A DNA stretch of 64,000 bases. It comes from Escherichia coli (GTDB lineage: Bacteria; Pseudomonadota; Gammaproteobacteria; Enterobacterales; Enterobacteriaceae). A program made the translations under genes and the position numbers. Below, piece after piece: positions 57,690 to 63,881 of the stretch. Under the pieces are notes generated by a model, which was not told the DNA's origin, did no database searches, and saw only the letters and a list, made by a program, of their open reading frames with translations. The DNA is taken from the NCBI RefSeq assembly GCF_024700885.2, contig NZ_CP117016.1; one strand, given 5' to 3'. How positions within the stretch are numbered: position 1 is the first letter of the stretch; each line of letters starts with the position of its first letter.

Positions 57690-57760
57690 TAAGCAAGGGC
57701 TAACTCATCGAAGCTCCGCTTCTTTGAGTTCCCTTGTTTTTCGCCCTTCGGTTGAAAAAG
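57690..57760. promoter_or_regulatory. candidate origin of transfer (oriT): nested inverted repeats upstream of mobC
   Basis: gcaagggctaactc ... gagttcccttg arms flanking the gaagc-tcc-gcttc hairpin, followed by cgcccttcgg; position matches oriT placement in mobC-mobA modules. Confidence 0.4.
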
Positions 57761-57784: not shown

Positions 57785-57812
57785 TTGACATGAATTGCAT
57801 TTCCACTATAAA
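57785..57812 (+). promoter_or_regulatory. sigma-70-like promoter for mobC-mobA
   Basis: -35 ttgaca (57785-57790), 16-nt spacer, -10 tataaa (57807-57812); strong SD aaaaaggag before mobC ATG. Confidence 0.5.
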
Positions 57813-57876: not shown

Positions 57877-58260
57877 ATGGGTAAAATAATAACATTGTCG
57901 TATACAAATAATTTTAAGCCTATTAGCGATAATAAATCTCAATCATTGCGAATACACTGTGTAAGTGTACGATTAAATAAAGAAGAGTTAGAGCTTCTCA
58001 ATGCAAGCCGTGGTGATAAACGCAAAGGTGAATGGCTTCGCATGGCATCACTTCAAAAGCTTCCTCCGACCATTCCTACAATCAATTTAGAAGTTTGGCA
58101 ATCATTGTCTGATATATCTCAAAAGCTAAACCGTCTAATAATCCACCTTGATACTAAAAGCAGTAATAGTGAACTGACGAAAACAGAGATCTTCGCTGTT
58201 AAAAAGCAGATTAAAGAGCTTCGCTCATGTCTTACAGGTTCTGATCCGTCCGTAAGGTAG
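57877..58260 (+). CDS. mobC: MobC-like relaxosome accessory protein
   Basis: 127 aa; segment VSVRLNKEELELLNASRGDKRKGEWLRMASL resembles the conserved MobC core (VRLxxEE...L...A); immediately upstream of the relaxase. Confidence 0.7.
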   Translation: MGKIITLSYTNNFKPISDNKSQSLRIHCVSVRLNKEELELLNASRGDKRKGEWLRMASLQKLPPTIPTINLEVWQSLSDISQKLNRLIIHLDTKSSNSELTKTEIFAVKKQIKELRSCLTGSDPSVR

Positions 58261-58268
58261 TTATTCGC

Positions 58269-59450
58269 ATGAAAGGAATGCAGAAGATCAAAAGGGGTAA
58301 GAGCTTCTCAGGTGTGGTTCTCTATGTGTTAAAGCCAGGCTCACACCATAGAACCGTTCCAGAAGTAATTGGTGGCAACATGACAGGTGATTGCTCACAA
58401 GAGTTAATCGACGAATTTAACCTTACGAAAGAGCTTCGCTCAGATGTGGCAAAACCTGTTTGGCACAATTCACTTCGATTACCCCAGGGAGAATCTCTTA
58501 CCAACGAACAATGGAAACGAATTGCTGACGATTACATGAAGCGAATGGGGTTCGGTGATACACACCTCCGTTGCTATGTTCTTCATGATGATCAGGCTGG
58601 TCAGCACATACACATTATTGCAAGTCGCATAGATCTCAATGGCGGGAAGCTCTACTTGGGTAGGAACGAAAACCTCATCAGCACCCGCATAATCAGTGAA
58701 CTCGAATTCGCTCATGGTCTGACAGTGACCAAGACAGCCTCTTCAATTGCACCAAAGCAACCGAAGCGGAAGAGAATCTCTCGCAACGAACAGATGCTAT
58801 CAGAACGAACTGGTGTTCCCTGCCCCAAGAAGTCCCTTCAACAGATCATAGATAAAAGTTTGGCAGATACACCTGACCTTTTAACTTTTATCAAGAGGCT
58901 GGAAGAAGCAGAAGTAGGCTGGACGGCGAATGTCGCAAGCACAGGTAAAATGAACGGGTTCTCTTTCGAATACACAGGAATAGCTTTCAAAGCTTCCCAG
59001 TTAGCCAAGAGCTATTCATGGGCAAATCTTCAAAAGCAGCTTAACTACAACCCGGATCACTTAGAAGCTCTGCGAAAGGATATACAGACCAAGGAAGTTC
59101 CTGCTCCTGTTCCTGTTCCTGTTCCTGTTCCTGTTCCTGTTCCTGTTCCTGTTCCTGCAGAACCGATAGCAAGAACGGCCGCCCAGATCGAAAGCATAAG
59201 TGAAAAAATTGCCGAACTGGAACTACGACTCAAAGAAGACAGAAGAAACGAAATCGTAGAAAAGATTCTTCAAAAGAATGCAGCCAAACAGCAAAAGCAT
59301 CTCAGGCTCACCGGCTGGATTCCCTTTTTACAACGGCTCATAGAGCTTCTCAGAAAATATGGAAGGAGCATCCTCCACAAGGTTCCTACAAACTTCTTAG
59401 AAGTCTATTCAACCCATCATCTGAAACCTACAAGAAAAATTCGTTTATAG
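58269..59450 (+). CDS. mobA: MobA/VirD2-type HUH relaxase (mobilisation nuclease)
   Basis: 393 aa; N-terminal Tyr region KSFSGVVLYVLK; three-His motif HDDQAGQHIHIIASRID; coiled-coil C-terminus. Confidence 0.85.
   Translation: MKGMQKIKRGKSFSGVVLYVLKPGSHHRTVPEVIGGNMTGDCSQELIDEFNLTKELRSDVAKPVWHNSLRLPQGESLTNEQWKRIADDYMKRMGFGDTHLRCYVLHDDQAGQHIHIIASRIDLNGGKLYLGRNENLISTRIISELEFAHGLTVTKTASSIAPKQPKRKRISRNEQMLSERTGVPCPKKSLQQIIDKSLADTPDLLTFIKRLEEAEVGWTANVASTGKMNGFSFEYTGIAFKASQLAKSYSWANLQKQLNYNPDHLEALRKDIQTKEVPAPVPVPVPVPVPVPVPVPAEPIARTAAQIESISEKIAELELRLKEDRRNEIVEKILQKNAAKQQKHLRLTGWIPFLQRLIELLRKYGRSILHKVPTNFLEVYSTHHLKPTRKIRL
59100..59159 (+). repeat. hexanucleotide tandem repeat: 8 perfect CCTGTT units (59106-59153) flanked by CCTGCT and CCTGCA
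   Basis: Encodes PAPVPVPVPVPVPVPVPVPA linker inside the relaxase. Confidence 0.95.
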
Positions 59451-59702
59451 ACAGCTAGTTATAAACACCTTTCGTAACATAACTTAATTACCTAGTGATA
59501 AATTTGTGTTTAGTCAAGAAAATATTGATCGTTATTACAGATCGATATCAATATTATGATAGCCTAAACCTATCGTAACTTAGACATCGATCGGTACAAG
59601 TGATTTTACTAAAGATAATTATTCATCGAGAATCCCTGAAAAGAGCCTGATGATTTTTAAGCAATAGCAGTATCAGGAACCGATTGTAAAAATGGAGTTA
59701 AT

Positions 59703-59981
59703 ATGAATAACGAAACCATTAAGTGTCCGTTCTGCTTCAAAGAGAGCCAGTTTGGTGTCCGTGTTTGTACCGGCTGTCATTCAACCATCAAATATGGCGA
59801 AGTTTCACCTTGGTTATCTTTACTAATAGGATTTATTTTATTAGCCATTGCTTACATCATACTTTATATAAGTCAAAGTTTTTTAGTAGCTCTCGTTATT
59901 CTTTTAACATTAATGATTTCTACAAGATTGTATATTCGTAAAAAATTTGCACACAGAGCAGTTTTCACTCACCAACATTAA
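59703..59981 (+). CDS. hypothetical zinc-ribbon membrane protein (92 aa)
   Basis: N-terminal CPFC...CTGC zinc-ribbon-like pair then two TM helices; SD tggag before ATG. Confidence 0.55.
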   Translation: MNNETIKCPFCFKESQFGVRVCTGCHSTIKYGEVSPWLSLLIGFILLAIAYIILYISQSFLVALVILLTLMISTRLYIRKKFAHRAVFTHQH

Positions 59982-59999
59982 GAACAAAAGGGATTTAAC

Positions 60000-60314
60000 A
60001 TGAAAGCATATGCTATGCTAACAATCATTCTTTCTACTTTTCTATTAACTGCATGTAATAGTGAACCAAGTCAAGATGATATCTACAATGCATTCAAAAG
60101 TGTTGTAGATAAAACCAATGCCAGCATGAAAGCTTTTGATTCAAGAGTGTCAGAAAAAGACCTTTTAAAAATCGATTATGTAAAAAAAGTAAGCTGTTCG
60201 GAAGAAGCAAACAATGTTTACAACTGCATTGTCGATGCTTCTATTAGCAACAATAAACAGACGAAACCAATTAAATTAGTTAAAGCTGATGGTGTCTGGA
60301 AAGAAGTTCAGTAG
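60000..60314 (+). CDS. hypothetical lipoprotein (104 aa)
   Basis: Signal peptide with lipobox LLTAC (MKAYAMLTIILSTFLLTACNSE); SD aaggga; terminator follows. Confidence 0.6.
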   Translation: MKAYAMLTIILSTFLLTACNSEPSQDDIYNAFKSVVDKTNASMKAFDSRVSEKDLLKIDYVKKVSCSEEANNVYNCIVDASISNNKQTKPIKLVKADGVWKEVQ

Positions 60315-60337: not shown

Positions 60338-60362
60338 TTAGCCCCTGCACAGGGGCTTTTTA
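60338..60362 (+). terminator. rho-independent terminator after the lipoprotein gene
   Basis: agcccctg-caca-ggggct hairpin followed by ttttta. Confidence 0.7.
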
Positions 60363-60894: not shown

Positions 60895-61278
60895 TTATTT
60901 TTTGTTTTTGGGAAAAATTTGATCTTCTCTAATACATTTACCATATGCAACCATTTGAAGATCTCTAACCATAAGTAGAAGCCTGTTATTTTCACTAACT
61001 AACCTCGAATTTTCTGTTTCTAATTTACTGATTTTATTCGAAGCATAGGCAAGACTTTGAGGACTTTTAATATGCTTAACAGTTTCACCTTTAGTTCTCT
61101 TTTTCTGCTGATATGCATAAGCTATTACTGTATGTCTTGAAAGAGCCTGTCTCGTTGGTTTTTTACCGAAATGATCCTCTACGGAATCACAAAGACTGAC
61201 CCAAGTTAAATCGCCTTCCCAGCCATTTATTTTATCGAGAACGAATTCAATATCTTCCTTGTTAAACTTTTTACTCAT
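60895..61278 (-). CDS. small coiled-coil protein downstream of the recombinases (TnpC-like position)
   Basis: Start at MSKKFNKEDIEF (track ORF starts 10 codons earlier); overlaps the upstream recombinase gene; C-terminal heptad-like region KISKLETENSRLVSENNRLLLMVRDLQ. Confidence 0.55.
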   Translation of the reverse strand: MSKKFNKEDIEFVLDKINGWEGDLTWVSLCDSVEDHFGKKPTRQALSRHTVIAYAYQQKKRTKGETVKHIKSPQSLAYASNKISKLETENSRLVSENNRLLLMVRDLQMVAYGKCIREDQIFPKNKK

Positions 61279-62917
61279 TATGTTCTCCTCTAAGATAATA
61301 ACTAACAATATGATTTATAATTTTACTAACTTCTTGGATTTCCTTTTCAACATAATTCGCTTTCTGTGAATTATATTGGCTTCTGTATAAATTATTCTTT
61401 TCTTCAAGCGTTTGTAAATGGTCTTTAATTTTGCAAATAATATCATCCTTACTCCCTCCACCTAAATCAGAAATCATTTCATCAGCAAATAATACTCTTC
61501 GTTCGTTTTGTCGCAACTCCTCCCAAGTTCGGTTATCATACACATTATTTTGTTCAACATTTTTCCTCCCTGACCAAAAAGCTATTTCTATATCAGAGAG
61601 CATAGCTCTTTGAGCAAGAGTGTTTAAAAGATGTCTTGGCTGATGACTACTAAAAATCTCTTTCATACCATTGGGTTGTAATGTTTTATGTCGTTGAAAA
61701 AAATTTAAGGTAGTTTCTTTTTCTGACCTTTTTTTAAAATCAGCAATAAACATCTTTTTATTTGCGGGTAAGACACAGAATAAATCAATTCCTTTCTTTA
61801 AATGTAATTGATCTTTATTTAGGATTAACAATCTATTACTAAGGTTTATAGATTTTGAAAATTCATCCCAAGATTTTGTTTTATCGCTATAATTAAAAAC
61901 TTCATTCCAAAATTCTTTTGCACTAAGAATCCCACTCTCTACCCTCATTAATATATTTTTAGTTTTAACATTGAAGCAGTCCATACAGTTTAGATTTAAA
62001 AGCTTATACAACTTTGTATGAAAATATCGTCCATTCTCATCAGTCTCTAAACTCTTATAAAACTCCAATTCTCCTTTTTCTCGTAGGGTAGCTATGCACC
62101 TTGCCGTTTGTGATAATACCCTTAATCTTTTAATGGCTAATTTTGCTATTGAATGCATATTCCTTGGAATCCACTTTATACTTTCACCATAGCCTTTTGC
62201 ACTATGATAACGAATGCCATAGGAGCCTTTCCCCTCTATGTCGTTCCCTTCAACTTCACAATCCACCTCAAGACTCAGGACTTCTGATATTCGTGTTGGA
62301 GCACAAAGAAGCAGTGCGATGATAGATGTTGTAAATATATCTCTTTGGCTTTTATCATTAGAACTAAAAACCCTACCAACAAGATCTATGACTTCCTCTT
62401 CTGGTAACTTATTTTTAATTTCTTTTTGCCCTATAAGATCTCTTACAGCTTTATTTCTAATTATTCTAAGCCTGGAGTTAAACTTACTTAATTTTGGATT
62501 TATTATGTTATTTATAGCTAACACTTCTAAAATATTCTTTAATGCCTTTTCAATAGCCCCCGCACGACTATTAGAATATTTCTTTTCTACTTGGAATAAA
62601 ATGTTGTTGATAACCTCAGAATTAATATTAACAATATGTGGTTCTACATTCAAAGTGAAGAATGAACTTTCCATAATTTTTATGACCGCCAAATAAAGTA
62701 ATGATTTACTGAGATTAGGGAAACACTCTCTATATATAATAACCTTTGATAATTGTTGAAAATGCGCTCCCATGTCTTTATCTTTTTTTATATGATTGTT
62801 ATTTTTAAATGAAACCCCTCTACCCCATGACAAATCATCCCAATTTATAATATTTTCTTTTTTTGCCTGTATCCTTACTTCATTAGCTAAAACATCATAA
62901 TTATTATAATGACTCAT
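61271..62917 (-). CDS. tyrosine recombinase, large (548 aa; Tn554 TnpB-like size and position)
   Basis: Catalytic region HQPRHLLNTLAQRAMLSDIEIAFWSGRKNVEQNNVYDNR (HxxR ... Y); box I candidate PTRISEVLSL; 14-nt overlap with upstream recombinase. Confidence 0.8.
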   Translation of the reverse strand: MSHYNNYDVLANEVRIQAKKENIINWDDLSWGRGVSFKNNNHIKKDKDMGAHFQQLSKVIIYRECFPNLSKSLLYLAVIKIMESSFFTLNVEPHIVNINSEVINNILFQVEKKYSNSRAGAIEKALKNILEVLAINNIINPKLSKFNSRLRIIRNKAVRDLIGQKEIKNKLPEEEVIDLVGRVFSSNDKSQRDIFTTSIIALLLCAPTRISEVLSLEVDCEVEGNDIEGKGSYGIRYHSAKGYGESIKWIPRNMHSIAKLAIKRLRVLSQTARCIATLREKGELEFYKSLETDENGRYFHTKLYKLLNLNCMDCFNVKTKNILMRVESGILSAKEFWNEVFNYSDKTKSWDEFSKSINLSNRLLILNKDQLHLKKGIDLFCVLPANKKMFIADFKKRSEKETTLNFFQRHKTLQPNGMKEIFSSHQPRHLLNTLAQRAMLSDIEIAFWSGRKNVEQNNVYDNRTWEELRQNERRVLFADEMISDLGGGSKDDIICKIKDHLQTLEEKNNLYRSQYNSQKANYVEKEIQEVSKIINHIVSYYLRGEHNE

Positions 62918-63881
62918 TATTCATGCCCTCCTTGTTGAGCAATTCGATTATTTTATTTATTTTACATTCTAACATTGTGAATAAGTCCGTTAGGATTTCA
63001 AAGTCTGCTTGCTTCGTATAATCTGCTATTAATACTCCAGTAAGCTTTTTTATGATTATCAAATCGTCAACCAATCTAAGGGTAATGTCGTCACTGTTTT
63101 TTAAAAATGAGGAAATATAAGGGCTTACTAACTCATTTATTGCCTGATCTATTCTGAATGAAAACTCTTCATTGTTTTTTGCATACGACAATACTGATTT
63201 CAAATTGCTATGATCTAAAGCTTTTGCTATCGTACCTAATCCATAACCTTTAAGTGCAAGCCTTGTGGCTAATGTAACCCTAAGTTGCCGAGAGTTAATC
63301 TTTTTATTTTTATCTTTACTTACCCTTTGGCAAATGGCCTGAACCCTACCGGTTATCCTCTTAGAACTCATATGCAAATTGAAGAAGTTATTTTCATATA
63401 ATTTATCAAGTTTGTAAGTCGAGTTAAAAAAACAAGGATCAATAAAGAGGGGTAAATTGTTTAATTCATCTTCACTTAATATATCGCCTACCTCACCCTG
63501 CACAAAAACCTTAACTACTGATTTAAGCTCTGATAGTGAATTGAACAAATTATCCCCTATACGCAATTCGGAAAAATCAGTTCTGAAACTATCTCCTTGT
63601 TTTAATCTGGGTATGTTTAAAAAATTACCATTTTCTTTGATATAAAGATCCTTCCTTTTTAATTGAGCGATCTGCATTGGTCTTCGCCCCGAATATATCA
63701 TCAGCATGACTAAAAGGTAGTCATTCATAGTCATATTTCCATCATTGTATTCCTTTGTCATGCCCCCAATTAGGTTCTTCAGTTCGTATTCAGATAATGG
63801 TCTTAAAGACTCTTTTCGCTCAATATATGCAGTTGTCTTGTTGGGTTTAGTTACTTTCCATTTTAAAATCAAATCCAGCAT
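62904..63881 (-). CDS. tyrosine recombinase, small (325 aa; Tn554 TnpA-like size and position)
   Basis: Box I YSGRRPMQIAQLKRKDL; box II/Tyr region LRVTLATRLALKGYGLGTIAKALDHSNLKSVLSYAKN. Confidence 0.8.
   Translation of the reverse strand: MLDLILKWKVTKPNKTTAYIERKESLRPLSEYELKNLIGGMTKEYNDGNMTMNDYLLVMLMIYSGRRPMQIAQLKRKDLYIKENGNFLNIPRLKQGDSFRTDFSELRIGDNLFNSLSELKSVVKVFVQGEVGDILSEDELNNLPLFIDPCFFNSTYKLDKLYENNFFNLHMSSKRITGRVQAICQRVSKDKNKKINSRQLRVTLATRLALKGYGLGTIAKALDHSNLKSVLSYAKNNEEFSFRIDQAINELVSPYISSFLKNSDDITLRLVDDLIIIKKLTGVLIADYTKQADFEILTDLFTMLECKINKIIELLNKEGMNNESL

Follow-up and report, generated by a model that had tools for sequence, protein, structure and literature searches.

In a 64-kb stretch of Escherichia coli DNA (hereafter the window), a conserved scaffold of ~80 bp at 59527–59605 is probably a Dam-methylation/OxyR phase-variation switch of the gtr/opvAB/agn43 kind, a function that we infer throughout from sequence. 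The scaffold occupies the middle of a 252-bp spacer (59451–59702), which separates a relaxase gene from two small genes for putative envelope proteins within a horizontally acquired island between ygbA and mutS of the chromosome. What is directly observed is how the scaffold is built and conserved, that it is collinear with characterised switches, and that a predicted promoter follows at a fixed position. The element is best read as an addition to the Dam/OxyR phase-variation switches, with three gtr-like half-sites and a predicted promoter geometry resembling that of opvAB.

The scaffold consists of GATC-N9-GATC, 15 nt, ATAG-N7-CTAT, another 15 nt and GATCGGTACAAGTGATT. By blastn, relatives of the spacer are found in 319 of 5426 complete E. 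coli genomes (about 6%). Strains MLI114 and CFSAN061761 are identical to the window over the query, and strain IAI1 carries a copy at NC_011741 4587767–4587971. The shared part shrinks to about 59511–59633, and to 59524–59606 in the weakest matches, even where the flanking genes have ceased to match. The alignment of 16 E. coli loci, collected by similarity alone, is free of gaps and alternates variable segments of fixed length with the invariant blocks ATTGATCGTT, GATCGATA, TGATAG, CTATC and ATCGATCGGTACAAG. Each half of the scaffold was also confirmed with a pattern built on the other half. The right-half pattern retrieved the element from about 40 species of Enterobacterales, matches in Paenibacillus and Dyella being judged as chance, and the left-half pattern retrieved it from >120 metagenome contigs, with GATCGGT, which this pattern does not require, in place in 104 of 114 unique metagenome sequences. 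Conversely, a pattern devoid of the two left-half GATC sites recovered sequences in which these sites were present in 50/53 and 51/53 cases. Overall, the scaffold is conserved across five enterobacterial families, and its full form GATC-N9-GATC-N15-ATAG-N7-CTAT-N15-GATC was matched a single time in the window and never in 100 shuffles. Enterobacterales have Dam, and the confinement of the element to this order counts in favor of a Dam/OxyR switch.

A sub-threshold Rfam match to IS102/IsrC (16.5 bits, E 2.5), together with the three GATC sites, led us to the region upstream of flu (agn43) in E. coli K-12. When a profile built from 54 island sequences was compared with the 1.2-kb K-12 flu locus and with P22 segments of 5 kb and 8 kb, only the two regulatory regions matched, with E-values of 2e-5 for agn43 and 4e-5 to 3e-4 for gtr that refer to a very small search space. 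Read toward gtrA, the P22 region gives ATTGATCGGTAACAACGATCAAT...ATAGATAAAAACTATCA...ATTGATCGCTTGTATCGATC, the same blocks in the same order as in the window and its relatives. On the agn43 side, the K-12 region reads aaaacGATCaatatctattttatcGATCgtttatatcGATCgataagctaat, which is nearly the left blocks of the island relatives from the second GATC onward; the K-12 string ATCGATCGTTTATATCGATCGATAAGCTAAT matches ATCGATCGTTTATATAGATCGATAAACTAGT of one relative (L040) at 28 of 31 positions.

The gtr system of P22 and Salmonella is an instructive precedent. Its GATC pairs are 13 bp apart, and OxyR binds its half-sites A, B and C as either AB or BC; methylation of GATC abolishes OxyR binding and binding prevents methylation, resulting in two self-perpetuating states (Broadbent et al. 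2010, PMC2909390). The window displays the same 13-bp distance between GATC sites and the same three OxyR-like half-sites, the outer two with GATC and the central one without. It also shares the block order and much of the sequence (ATTGATCGGT...CGATCAAT...ATAG-N7-CTATCA...ATTGATCG), and a location on a mobile element directly upstream of the promoter, predicted in the case of the window, of membrane-protein genes. The two systems differ in that the promoter-proximal half-site of gtr contains two GATC while that of the window has kept one, the second being decayed to GATT. In addition, the half-site spacings differ by 1 bp, and the putatively controlled genes are unrelated to gtrABC. Finally, compared with gtr, the distance between the last GATC and the −10 hexamer is greater by 4–5 bp in the window. 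Due to this shift, half-site 3 abuts the predicted −35 hexamer rather than overlapping it as in gtr, and the ON/OFF polarity may therefore be reversed. In agn43, half-site 1 has a near-identical counterpart in the OxyR site (ATCGATCGTTTATATCGATCGATAAGC in K-12), also carried by a horizontally acquired island. Here, a single OxyR binding site with three GATC has been described, at which OxyR is purely a repressor (PMC2909390). By our own reading, this site begins at the annotated IsrC 5' end, downstream of the transcription start, and agn43 differs further from the window by lacking the central GATC-free consensus dyad and alternative binding sites.

Following opvAB site B, the half-sites were taken as 15-mers whose first base is the A of a GATC, and were scored by their matches to the 10 positions of the OxyR consensus ATAGnTnnnAnCTAT in a set of 157 unique family sequences. 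Scores are mostly 7–8/10 for half-site 1, 8–10/10 for half-site 2, and 7–8/10 for half-site 3 in 149/157, in the same range as the experimentally proven opvAB sites (7–10/10); among the 15-mers of the island, 0.8% score at least 7. Half-site 1 resembles the OxyR sites GATCGTTTATATCGATC and GATCGGTAACAACGATC published for gtr (PMC7708049 Table 2), the former string being also found in the K-12 agn43 regulatory region. Half-site 2 has the form of opvAB sites A and C, published as ATAGTTTATATCTAT (PMC7708049 Table 2); as a group, the published sequences GATCGTTTATATCGATC, GATCGGTAACAACGATC and ATAGTTTATATCTAT show the forms of half-sites 1, 3 and 2. For half-site 3, the collinear counterpart in P22 gtr is the GATC3/GATC4 block. 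Both GATAG and CTATC of half-site 2 are invariant in the 16 E. coli sequences, and within its 7-nt spacer only position 2 (a pyrimidine) and position 6 (a purine) are restricted, which is the constraint predicted by the OxyR consensus nTnnnAn. The centers of half-sites 2 and 3 are 31 bp apart in 146/157 sequences, and this spacing is found on both sides in about 95% of the set. Hence, where such a switch calls for at least two OxyR-like half-sites, three are present; GATC lies inside half-site 1 (59527 and 59540) and half-site 3 (59589), and the spacing expected for a reduced OxyR tetramer is matched to within 1 bp (31 bp versus 32 bp in opvAB).

The position of the predicted promoter brings the element closer to opvAB. 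In 147 of the 157 sequences, the best sigma-70-like match is found at a constant offset from the third GATC (+15/16 and +38 to +40) with hexamers that vary by subfamily, and this fixed offset puts the half-site centers at about −43, −74 and −105. In opvAB, sites C and D are centered at −75 and −43, D being immediately upstream of the −35 hexamer, and adjacent sites are 32 bp apart, a distance termed canonical for reduced OxyR (Cota et al. 2016, PMC4856963). The window matches these centers with −74 and −43, and its half-site 3 ends exactly at the start of the predicted −35 hexamer. Other common features are the alternation of consensus ATAG-N7-CTAT sites with weaker GATC-bearing sites and the small membrane proteins encoded downstream, which are inner-membrane proteins in opvAB. 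In contrast, opvAB contains four half-sites and four GATC, with one GATC per weak site and a 41-bp gap between its two site pairs, and it is a chromosomal locus of Salmonella that is not beside mobilization genes.

By analogy with these systems, a tetramer of OxyR, the LysR-type regulator of the host, would bind either half-sites 1 and 2 or half-sites 2 and 3. An occupied outer site would be shielded from Dam and stay unmethylated, while the free outer site would be methylated and thereby closed to OxyR. Each state would reproduce itself after replication, with rare switching between both. With OxyR on half-sites 1 and 2, the GATC at 59589 would be methylated and the promoter-proximal site kept free of OxyR; with OxyR on half-sites 2 and 3, the GATC sites at 59527 and 59540 would be methylated instead. 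Occupancy of half-sites 2 and 3 would then set the activity of the weak promoter predicted to drive 59703–60314, the putative controlled unit, which comprises both small genes for envelope proteins and ends with the terminator-like hairpin at 60340. As half-site 3 abuts the −35 hexamer at −43 like opvAB site D and the predicted promoter is weak, we favor a polarity in which occupancy of half-sites 2 and 3 would correspond to ON, the alternative being repression from the same sites as at gtr. OxyR binding, differential methylation, bistable expression and polarity are all inferred from the characterised systems.

Several observations weigh against a Dam/OxyR switch. In the window, half-sites 1 and 3 score only 7/10, as compared with 8 and 7 for the proven opvAB sites B and D. 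Half-site 3 has a single GATC (the second being GATT), and the symmetric two-plus-two layout of gtr is thus absent. One relative from Photorhabdus (L058) is devoid of the first GATC. The predicted promoter agrees with the consensus at 8/12 positions and was not listed by a stricter scan. Part of the conservation statistics and of the scores in the 157-sequence set is forced by the search patterns, and the small search space behind the profile E-values calls for the same caution. Finally, the near-constant position right after the relaxase gene has no account in the switch model and can be attributed only to the conserved gene order of the island backbone.

The conserved scaffold is distinct from the features that had first drawn attention to the spacer. 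An earlier note on this DNA had singled out an imperfect inverted repeat at 59521–59555 and a TCGTAAC motif duplicated about 100 bp apart, and had suggested that this could be an operator controlling the two small genes downstream or a recombination- or replication-related site. Both repeats are present: the arms AATATTGAT (59521–59529) and ATCAATATT (59547–59555) are perfectly complementary over 9 bp and 17 nt apart, the longer arms first proposed requiring a 2-nt bulge, and TCGTAAC is found at 59472–59478 and 59573–59579, 101 bp apart, each copy sitting in a 15-nt repeat that is 87% identical. In 2000 dinucleotide-preserving shuffles of the 252-bp region, however, a perfect inverted repeat of at least 9 bp with a spacer of 3–40 nt arose 124 times, and at least as many exact 7-mer direct repeats as observed arose 1400 times. 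In addition, pairing of the inverted repeat is possible in just 43% of the cells compared (54 homologous sequences; 27–62% for slid controls), and its right arm falls within freely variable segments, as do both TCGTAAC copies, which are unconserved in relatives. The inverted repeat is therefore not the signal, even if the invariant GATC sites 59527 and 59540 are both within its span. The idea that the whole region has no function, the repeats being chance features of AT-rich spacer DNA, holds for these two repeats alone, which are at or near chance level and unconserved. It is refuted for the scaffold, which is gap-free across five enterobacterial families and hundreds of sequences and whose pattern never appeared in shuffles; as an explanation of the region it is hardly tenable.

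The variable part of the inverted repeat also shows an unusual change in one strain. Between the window (59544–59556) and strain CMZE087 (L007, 2624–2636), ATCAAT is replaced by ATTGAT, an exact 6-bp inversion in a short palindromic context. Consequently, the inverted repeat is a direct repeat in that strain. The change is possibly a template-switch mutation.

The operator proposal fares better, on condition that it is transferred to other motifs: the predicted regulatory switch is located directly upstream of a conserved promoter position and, in loci with a permuted gene order, still accompanies the small membrane-protein genes (see below), while the conserved motifs are not those first noticed. 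The version closest to the original idea would involve an island-encoded or other non-OxyR protein, such as another LysR-type regulator or the MobC-like protein, with GATC as part of its motif and not as a Dam target. Invariant half-sites around a variable spacer and a fixed position beside the predicted promoter would suit such a protein, and the dyad TGATAG...CTATCA exceeds the OxyR consensus by two bases on each side. Yet the likeness to experimentally defined OxyR sites extends to all three half-sites and to their 31-bp spacing, GATC is the invariant part of the outer boxes while its neighbors vary, and the mobC-like gene, the only candidate regulator gene with consistent linkage, lies apart from the element in permuted loci. 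We consider this alternative improbable, and the binding protein is likely host OxyR, in combination with Dam methylation, rather than a product of the island. As for a recombination- or replication-related site, no support was found. In particular, the hypervariable 7-nt spacer was considered as the 7-bp overlap of a tyrosine-recombinase core site, but its variation is point-wise and obeys the OxyR constraint nTnnnAn.

A hairpin-like dyad with a variable loop and the lack of any predicted terminator between the relaxase stop codon and the core could also evoke an RNA element, which might be a small RNA, a leader or a structure at the 3' end of the relaxase transcript. This appears very unlikely, as no Rfam family is detected even at E up to 10, the stems never covary, and the fold energy is ordinary (z about −1.9 on either strand).

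The position of the core calls for a more careful evaluation of an origin of transfer (oriT). All annotated E. coli loci that were inspected have the element immediately behind the relaxase gene. Where sufficient upstream sequence is available, the same arrangement holds for every species-representative genome and for 96 of 104 loci from metagenomes and viral contigs. A conserved spacer beside the relaxase is the signal on which current oriT prediction in integrative elements relies (Ares-Arroyo et al. 2026 preprint). The relaxase and the MobC-like protein would in that case bind a nested inverted repeat and nick the DNA beside ATCGATCGGTACAAG. This repeat (TAC.GATCGAT / ATCGATC.GTA around TGATAG / CTATCA) can be formed in 88.5% of the cells compared, the single-strand fold has a z of about −2, and no other non-coding DNA close to the relaxase gene is as conserved as the core, while the downstream genes vary; moreover, left and right flank types occur in all four combinations. 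The core, which is specific to chromosomal islands, has conservation, proximity to the relaxase gene and inverted repeats in common with MOBQ/MOBP origins, including candidates from integrative elements. Unlike these, it is found downstream and not upstream of the relaxase operon and is devoid of a nick-site consensus: by eye, it contains nothing like the MOBQ consensus NWACCNNTAAGTGCGCCCTYNN or the MOBP nick motif ATCCTG. The invariant core of the outer blocks is the palindrome GATC, with adjacent bases that vary, and the stems are invariant, so that no covariation is seen in them, which is uninformative on pairing. More decisively, collinearity with the switches of gtr, agn43 and opvAB accounts for every conserved block. 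In the permuted subfamily, the core lies apart from the mobC-like and relaxase genes, with two genes and a terminator in between, and the canonical oriT position ahead of the mobC-like gene holds a better candidate (57691–57754). For these reasons (the agn43/gtr match, the permuted loci and the better candidate), a transfer origin was dropped as main explanation and seems to us decidedly unlikely. If the core is a Dam/OxyR switch, it would illustrate that a conserved spacer beside a relaxase gene, as used for oriT prediction in integrative elements, can be something else.

The alternative element at 57691–57754, about 125–185 bp upstream of the mobC-like start codon, is an interrupted hairpin with a 17-bp stem (CAAGGG..AACTCA..GAAGC/GCTTC..TGAGTT CCCTTG) followed by TTTTTCGCCCTTCGG, with a fold z of −4.6. 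It is present in 102/181 family loci, is partly shared with a Pseudomonas plasmid encoding a 50%-identical relaxase, and resembles the end of the MOBQ consensus (...GCGCCCTY). A canonical promoter comes after it (TTGACA 57786–57791, TATAAA 57809–57814). It is a candidate transfer origin or, equally, the terminator of the preceding gene.

Against 72,556 plasmid records and against phages, blastn of the core returned nothing beyond one doubtful 3.6-kb contig. This linear Salmonella record (L018, OX345050.1), labelled as a plasmid, contains the mobC-like gene, the relaxase gene, the predicted switch and the start of the zinc-ribbon gene, and looks like a chromosomal-island fragment; its source strain SV10194 is an isolate used in the 2026 study of opvAB variability. 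The closest plasmid relaxases are of the pGNB2 type (43% identity, typed MOBP) and from the Pseudomonas plasmid (50%), and no similar core was found next to them. String searches of the literature with the box sequences, whose coverage left out subscription journals, returned gtr sites only and no paper on this element; an earlier description may exist.

Permuted loci help to delineate the unit that would be under the control of the Dam/OxyR switch. In a metagenome contig (L108, Ga0308165_1006953), the order is element, lipoprotein gene, zinc-ribbon gene, strong terminator and, after further genes, the mobC-like and relaxase genes, the unit being closed by a hairpin equivalent to that at 60340–60357. 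This permuted gene order implies that the element moves together with the genes for the small membrane proteins. That the switch might control the relaxase operon was also considered for this subfamily and rejected, given the strong terminator behind the two small genes. L108 belongs to a divergent subfamily (with L076, L083, L097, L102, L124 and L165) in which the switch unit occurs as a tandem duplication, the additional GATC box and TGATAG-N7-CTATCA dyad being located about 50 bp downstream; the permuted order was seen at least in L108 and L124, and the terminator after the zinc-ribbon gene was checked in L108 only.

The same architecture is found in front of other genes. In IMG/VR viral contigs (L201–L213), the pattern GATC-N9-GATC ... 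ATAG-N7-CTAT ... GATC stands ahead of gtrA and of genes whose products, as judged from N-terminal sequences, are two acyltransferase-like proteins, a 184-aa membrane protein and a 181-aa protein that begins like a fimbrial subunit. This distribution shows a portable, putatively regulatory cassette for envelope genes (gtrA, acyltransferase-like and other viral-contig genes), and suggests that these contigs carry further unstudied envelope genes under possible Dam/OxyR control on prophage-like elements.

A striking property of the predicted switch is the speed at which its unconstrained positions evolve, more than 10 times faster than flanking DNA and the relaxase gene. Among 66 pairs with near-identical flanks, differences per site amount to 0.34 in the half-site 2 spacer, 0.16 in the variable segment V1 and 0.09 in V3, as compared with 0.002–0.03 elsewhere. 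The half-site 2 spacer already differs by 0.16 per site where 600 nt of the relaxase gene differ by <0.5% (11 pairs), and by 0.30 at 0.5–2% relaxase divergence (13 pairs). No fewer than 120 distinct 7-nt spacers are found among 141 sequences, with single-base steps within clusters. In opvAB and gtrABC, hot-spot variation between conserved GATC and promoter boxes has been linked to the tuning of switching (2026 study, PMC12902445); the island element displays the same pattern in a stronger form. The fast turnover may reflect selection on switching rates or local hypermutability. The possibility that the variable segments are specificity determinants tracking the relaxase was rejected, as Spearman correlations with relaxase divergence are low (rho 0.08–0.2), with segments near saturation.

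Table 1. Coordinates of the predicted switch, of the inverted repeat noticed earlier and of neighboring genes in the window.
Feature	Position	Strand	Details
Half-site 1 (GATC type), GATCGTTATTACAGATC	59527–59543		Dam sites 59527–59530 and 59540–59543; 15-mer 59528–59542, center 59535 (about −105)
Half-site 2 (without GATC), TGATAG-N7-CTATC	59557–59574		15-mer ATAGCCTAAACCTAT 59559–59573, center 59566 (about −74)
Half-site 3 (GATC type), GATCGGTACAAGTGATT	59589–59605		Dam site 59589–59592; decayed second site GATT 59602–59605; 15-mer 59590–59604, center 59597 (about −43)
Predicted weak promoter	59605–59633	+	−35 TTTACT 59605–59610; 17-nt spacer; −10 GAGAAT 59628–59633; predicted start near 59640
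Unconstrained positions	59547–59585		V1 59547–59556; half-site 2 spacer 59563–59569; V3 59575–59585
Inverted repeat of the earlier note	59521–59555		Arms 59521–59529 and 59547–59555; present, not conserved, marginal by chance
mobC-like gene	57877–58260	+	127 aa; precedes the relaxase gene; named for the usual mobilization-accessory position
Relaxase gene, MobA/VirD2-type	58269–59450	+	393 aa; PF03432, E 5e-27; upstream neighbor of the spacer
First gene of the putative controlled unit	59703–59981	+	92 aa; N-terminal CxxC...CxxC zinc ribbon, hydrophobic C-terminal half; from the open reading frame list
Second gene of the putative controlled unit	60000–60314	+	104 aa; predicted lipoprotein, signal peptide ends LLTAC; from the open reading frame list
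Terminator-like hairpin AGCCCCTGCACAGGGGCT, then TTTTATT	60340–60357	+	Closes the two-gene unit 59703–60314

The proteins encoded around the scaffold are poorly characterised (Table 1). For the two small downstream proteins, searches in Pfam, NCBIfam and PADLOC returned no meaningful family, and PHROGs gave only weak matches for the proteins of the locus (E about 0.002–0.004), among them a family of unknown function for the 92-aa zinc-ribbon protein (E 0.004), whose gene is preceded by GGAG at 59694–59697. A zinc-ribbon-type protein is encoded by the first downstream open reading frame in 55/151 loci, and homologues of the lipoprotein are found downstream of the element in 53/125 metagenome and viral-contig loci; across loci, at least four unrelated families are represented among the first downstream genes. 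On the other side, the relaxase keeps its Tyr19 and H-D-QHIHI catalytic motifs across 41 homologues. Its gene contains a tandem hexanucleotide repeat at 59097–59157 (GTTCCT, 10.2 copies, 96% matches) that encodes a Pro-Val repeat linker (VPAPVPVPVPVPVPVPVPVP), which is likely length-variable.

To the right of the small genes, an operon on the minus strand spans 60895–63881 and continues past the window end (L003, 17596–22209). Its products are two tyrosine recombinases, a protein of 548 aa and a small protein. The 548-aa protein has no recognisable domains, and the operon is likened by gene order only to that of GInt elements (ginABCD), which have been described as putatively non-mobilizable (PMC10214605); here and at many related loci, the GInt-like operon adjoins the mobC-like and relaxase genes. 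Further along the same island, past the window end (L003, 22382–29356), tRNA-Asp and tRNA-Val genes are followed by a pair encoding an OLD-family ATP-dependent nuclease and a UvrD-like helicase (Gabija-like), and a further integrase gene abuts mutS; this content suggests two elements in tandem. Elsewhere in the window, the MicA small RNA (12444–12515) and an array of four tRNA-Arg genes plus tRNA-Ser (15356–16120) are ordinary features of the core genome.

Taken together, these features allow a broader scenario that we put forward tentatively. The switch cassette might belong to the standard backbone of mobilizable islands that form a large family, carry defence systems and integrate by a three-recombinase (GInt-like) module. 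The envelope-protein pair would be heritably ON or OFF in subpopulations and act at the cell surface, for instance in the exclusion of phages or of incoming conjugative DNA, and the island would hedge its bets on a costly surface phenotype. The fast turnover of switch positions would then result from selection that tunes switching rates by lineage.

To our knowledge, Dam/OxyR epigenetic switches are known at just a handful of loci, which are agn43, gtr, opvAB and phage Mu mom. All of them alter the cell surface or phage sensitivity. If the Dam/OxyR nature of the scaffold holds true, the element would add a family of switches that about 6% of complete E. coli genomes and dozens of species of Enterobacterales possess, carried by mobilizable islands with anti-phage systems and controlling unstudied proteins. 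Besides, it would offer a natural series of more than 150 switch variants, in which the sites for protein binding and methylation are invariant while the spacers change rapidly, and which could be used to test how sequence tunes the rates of switching.

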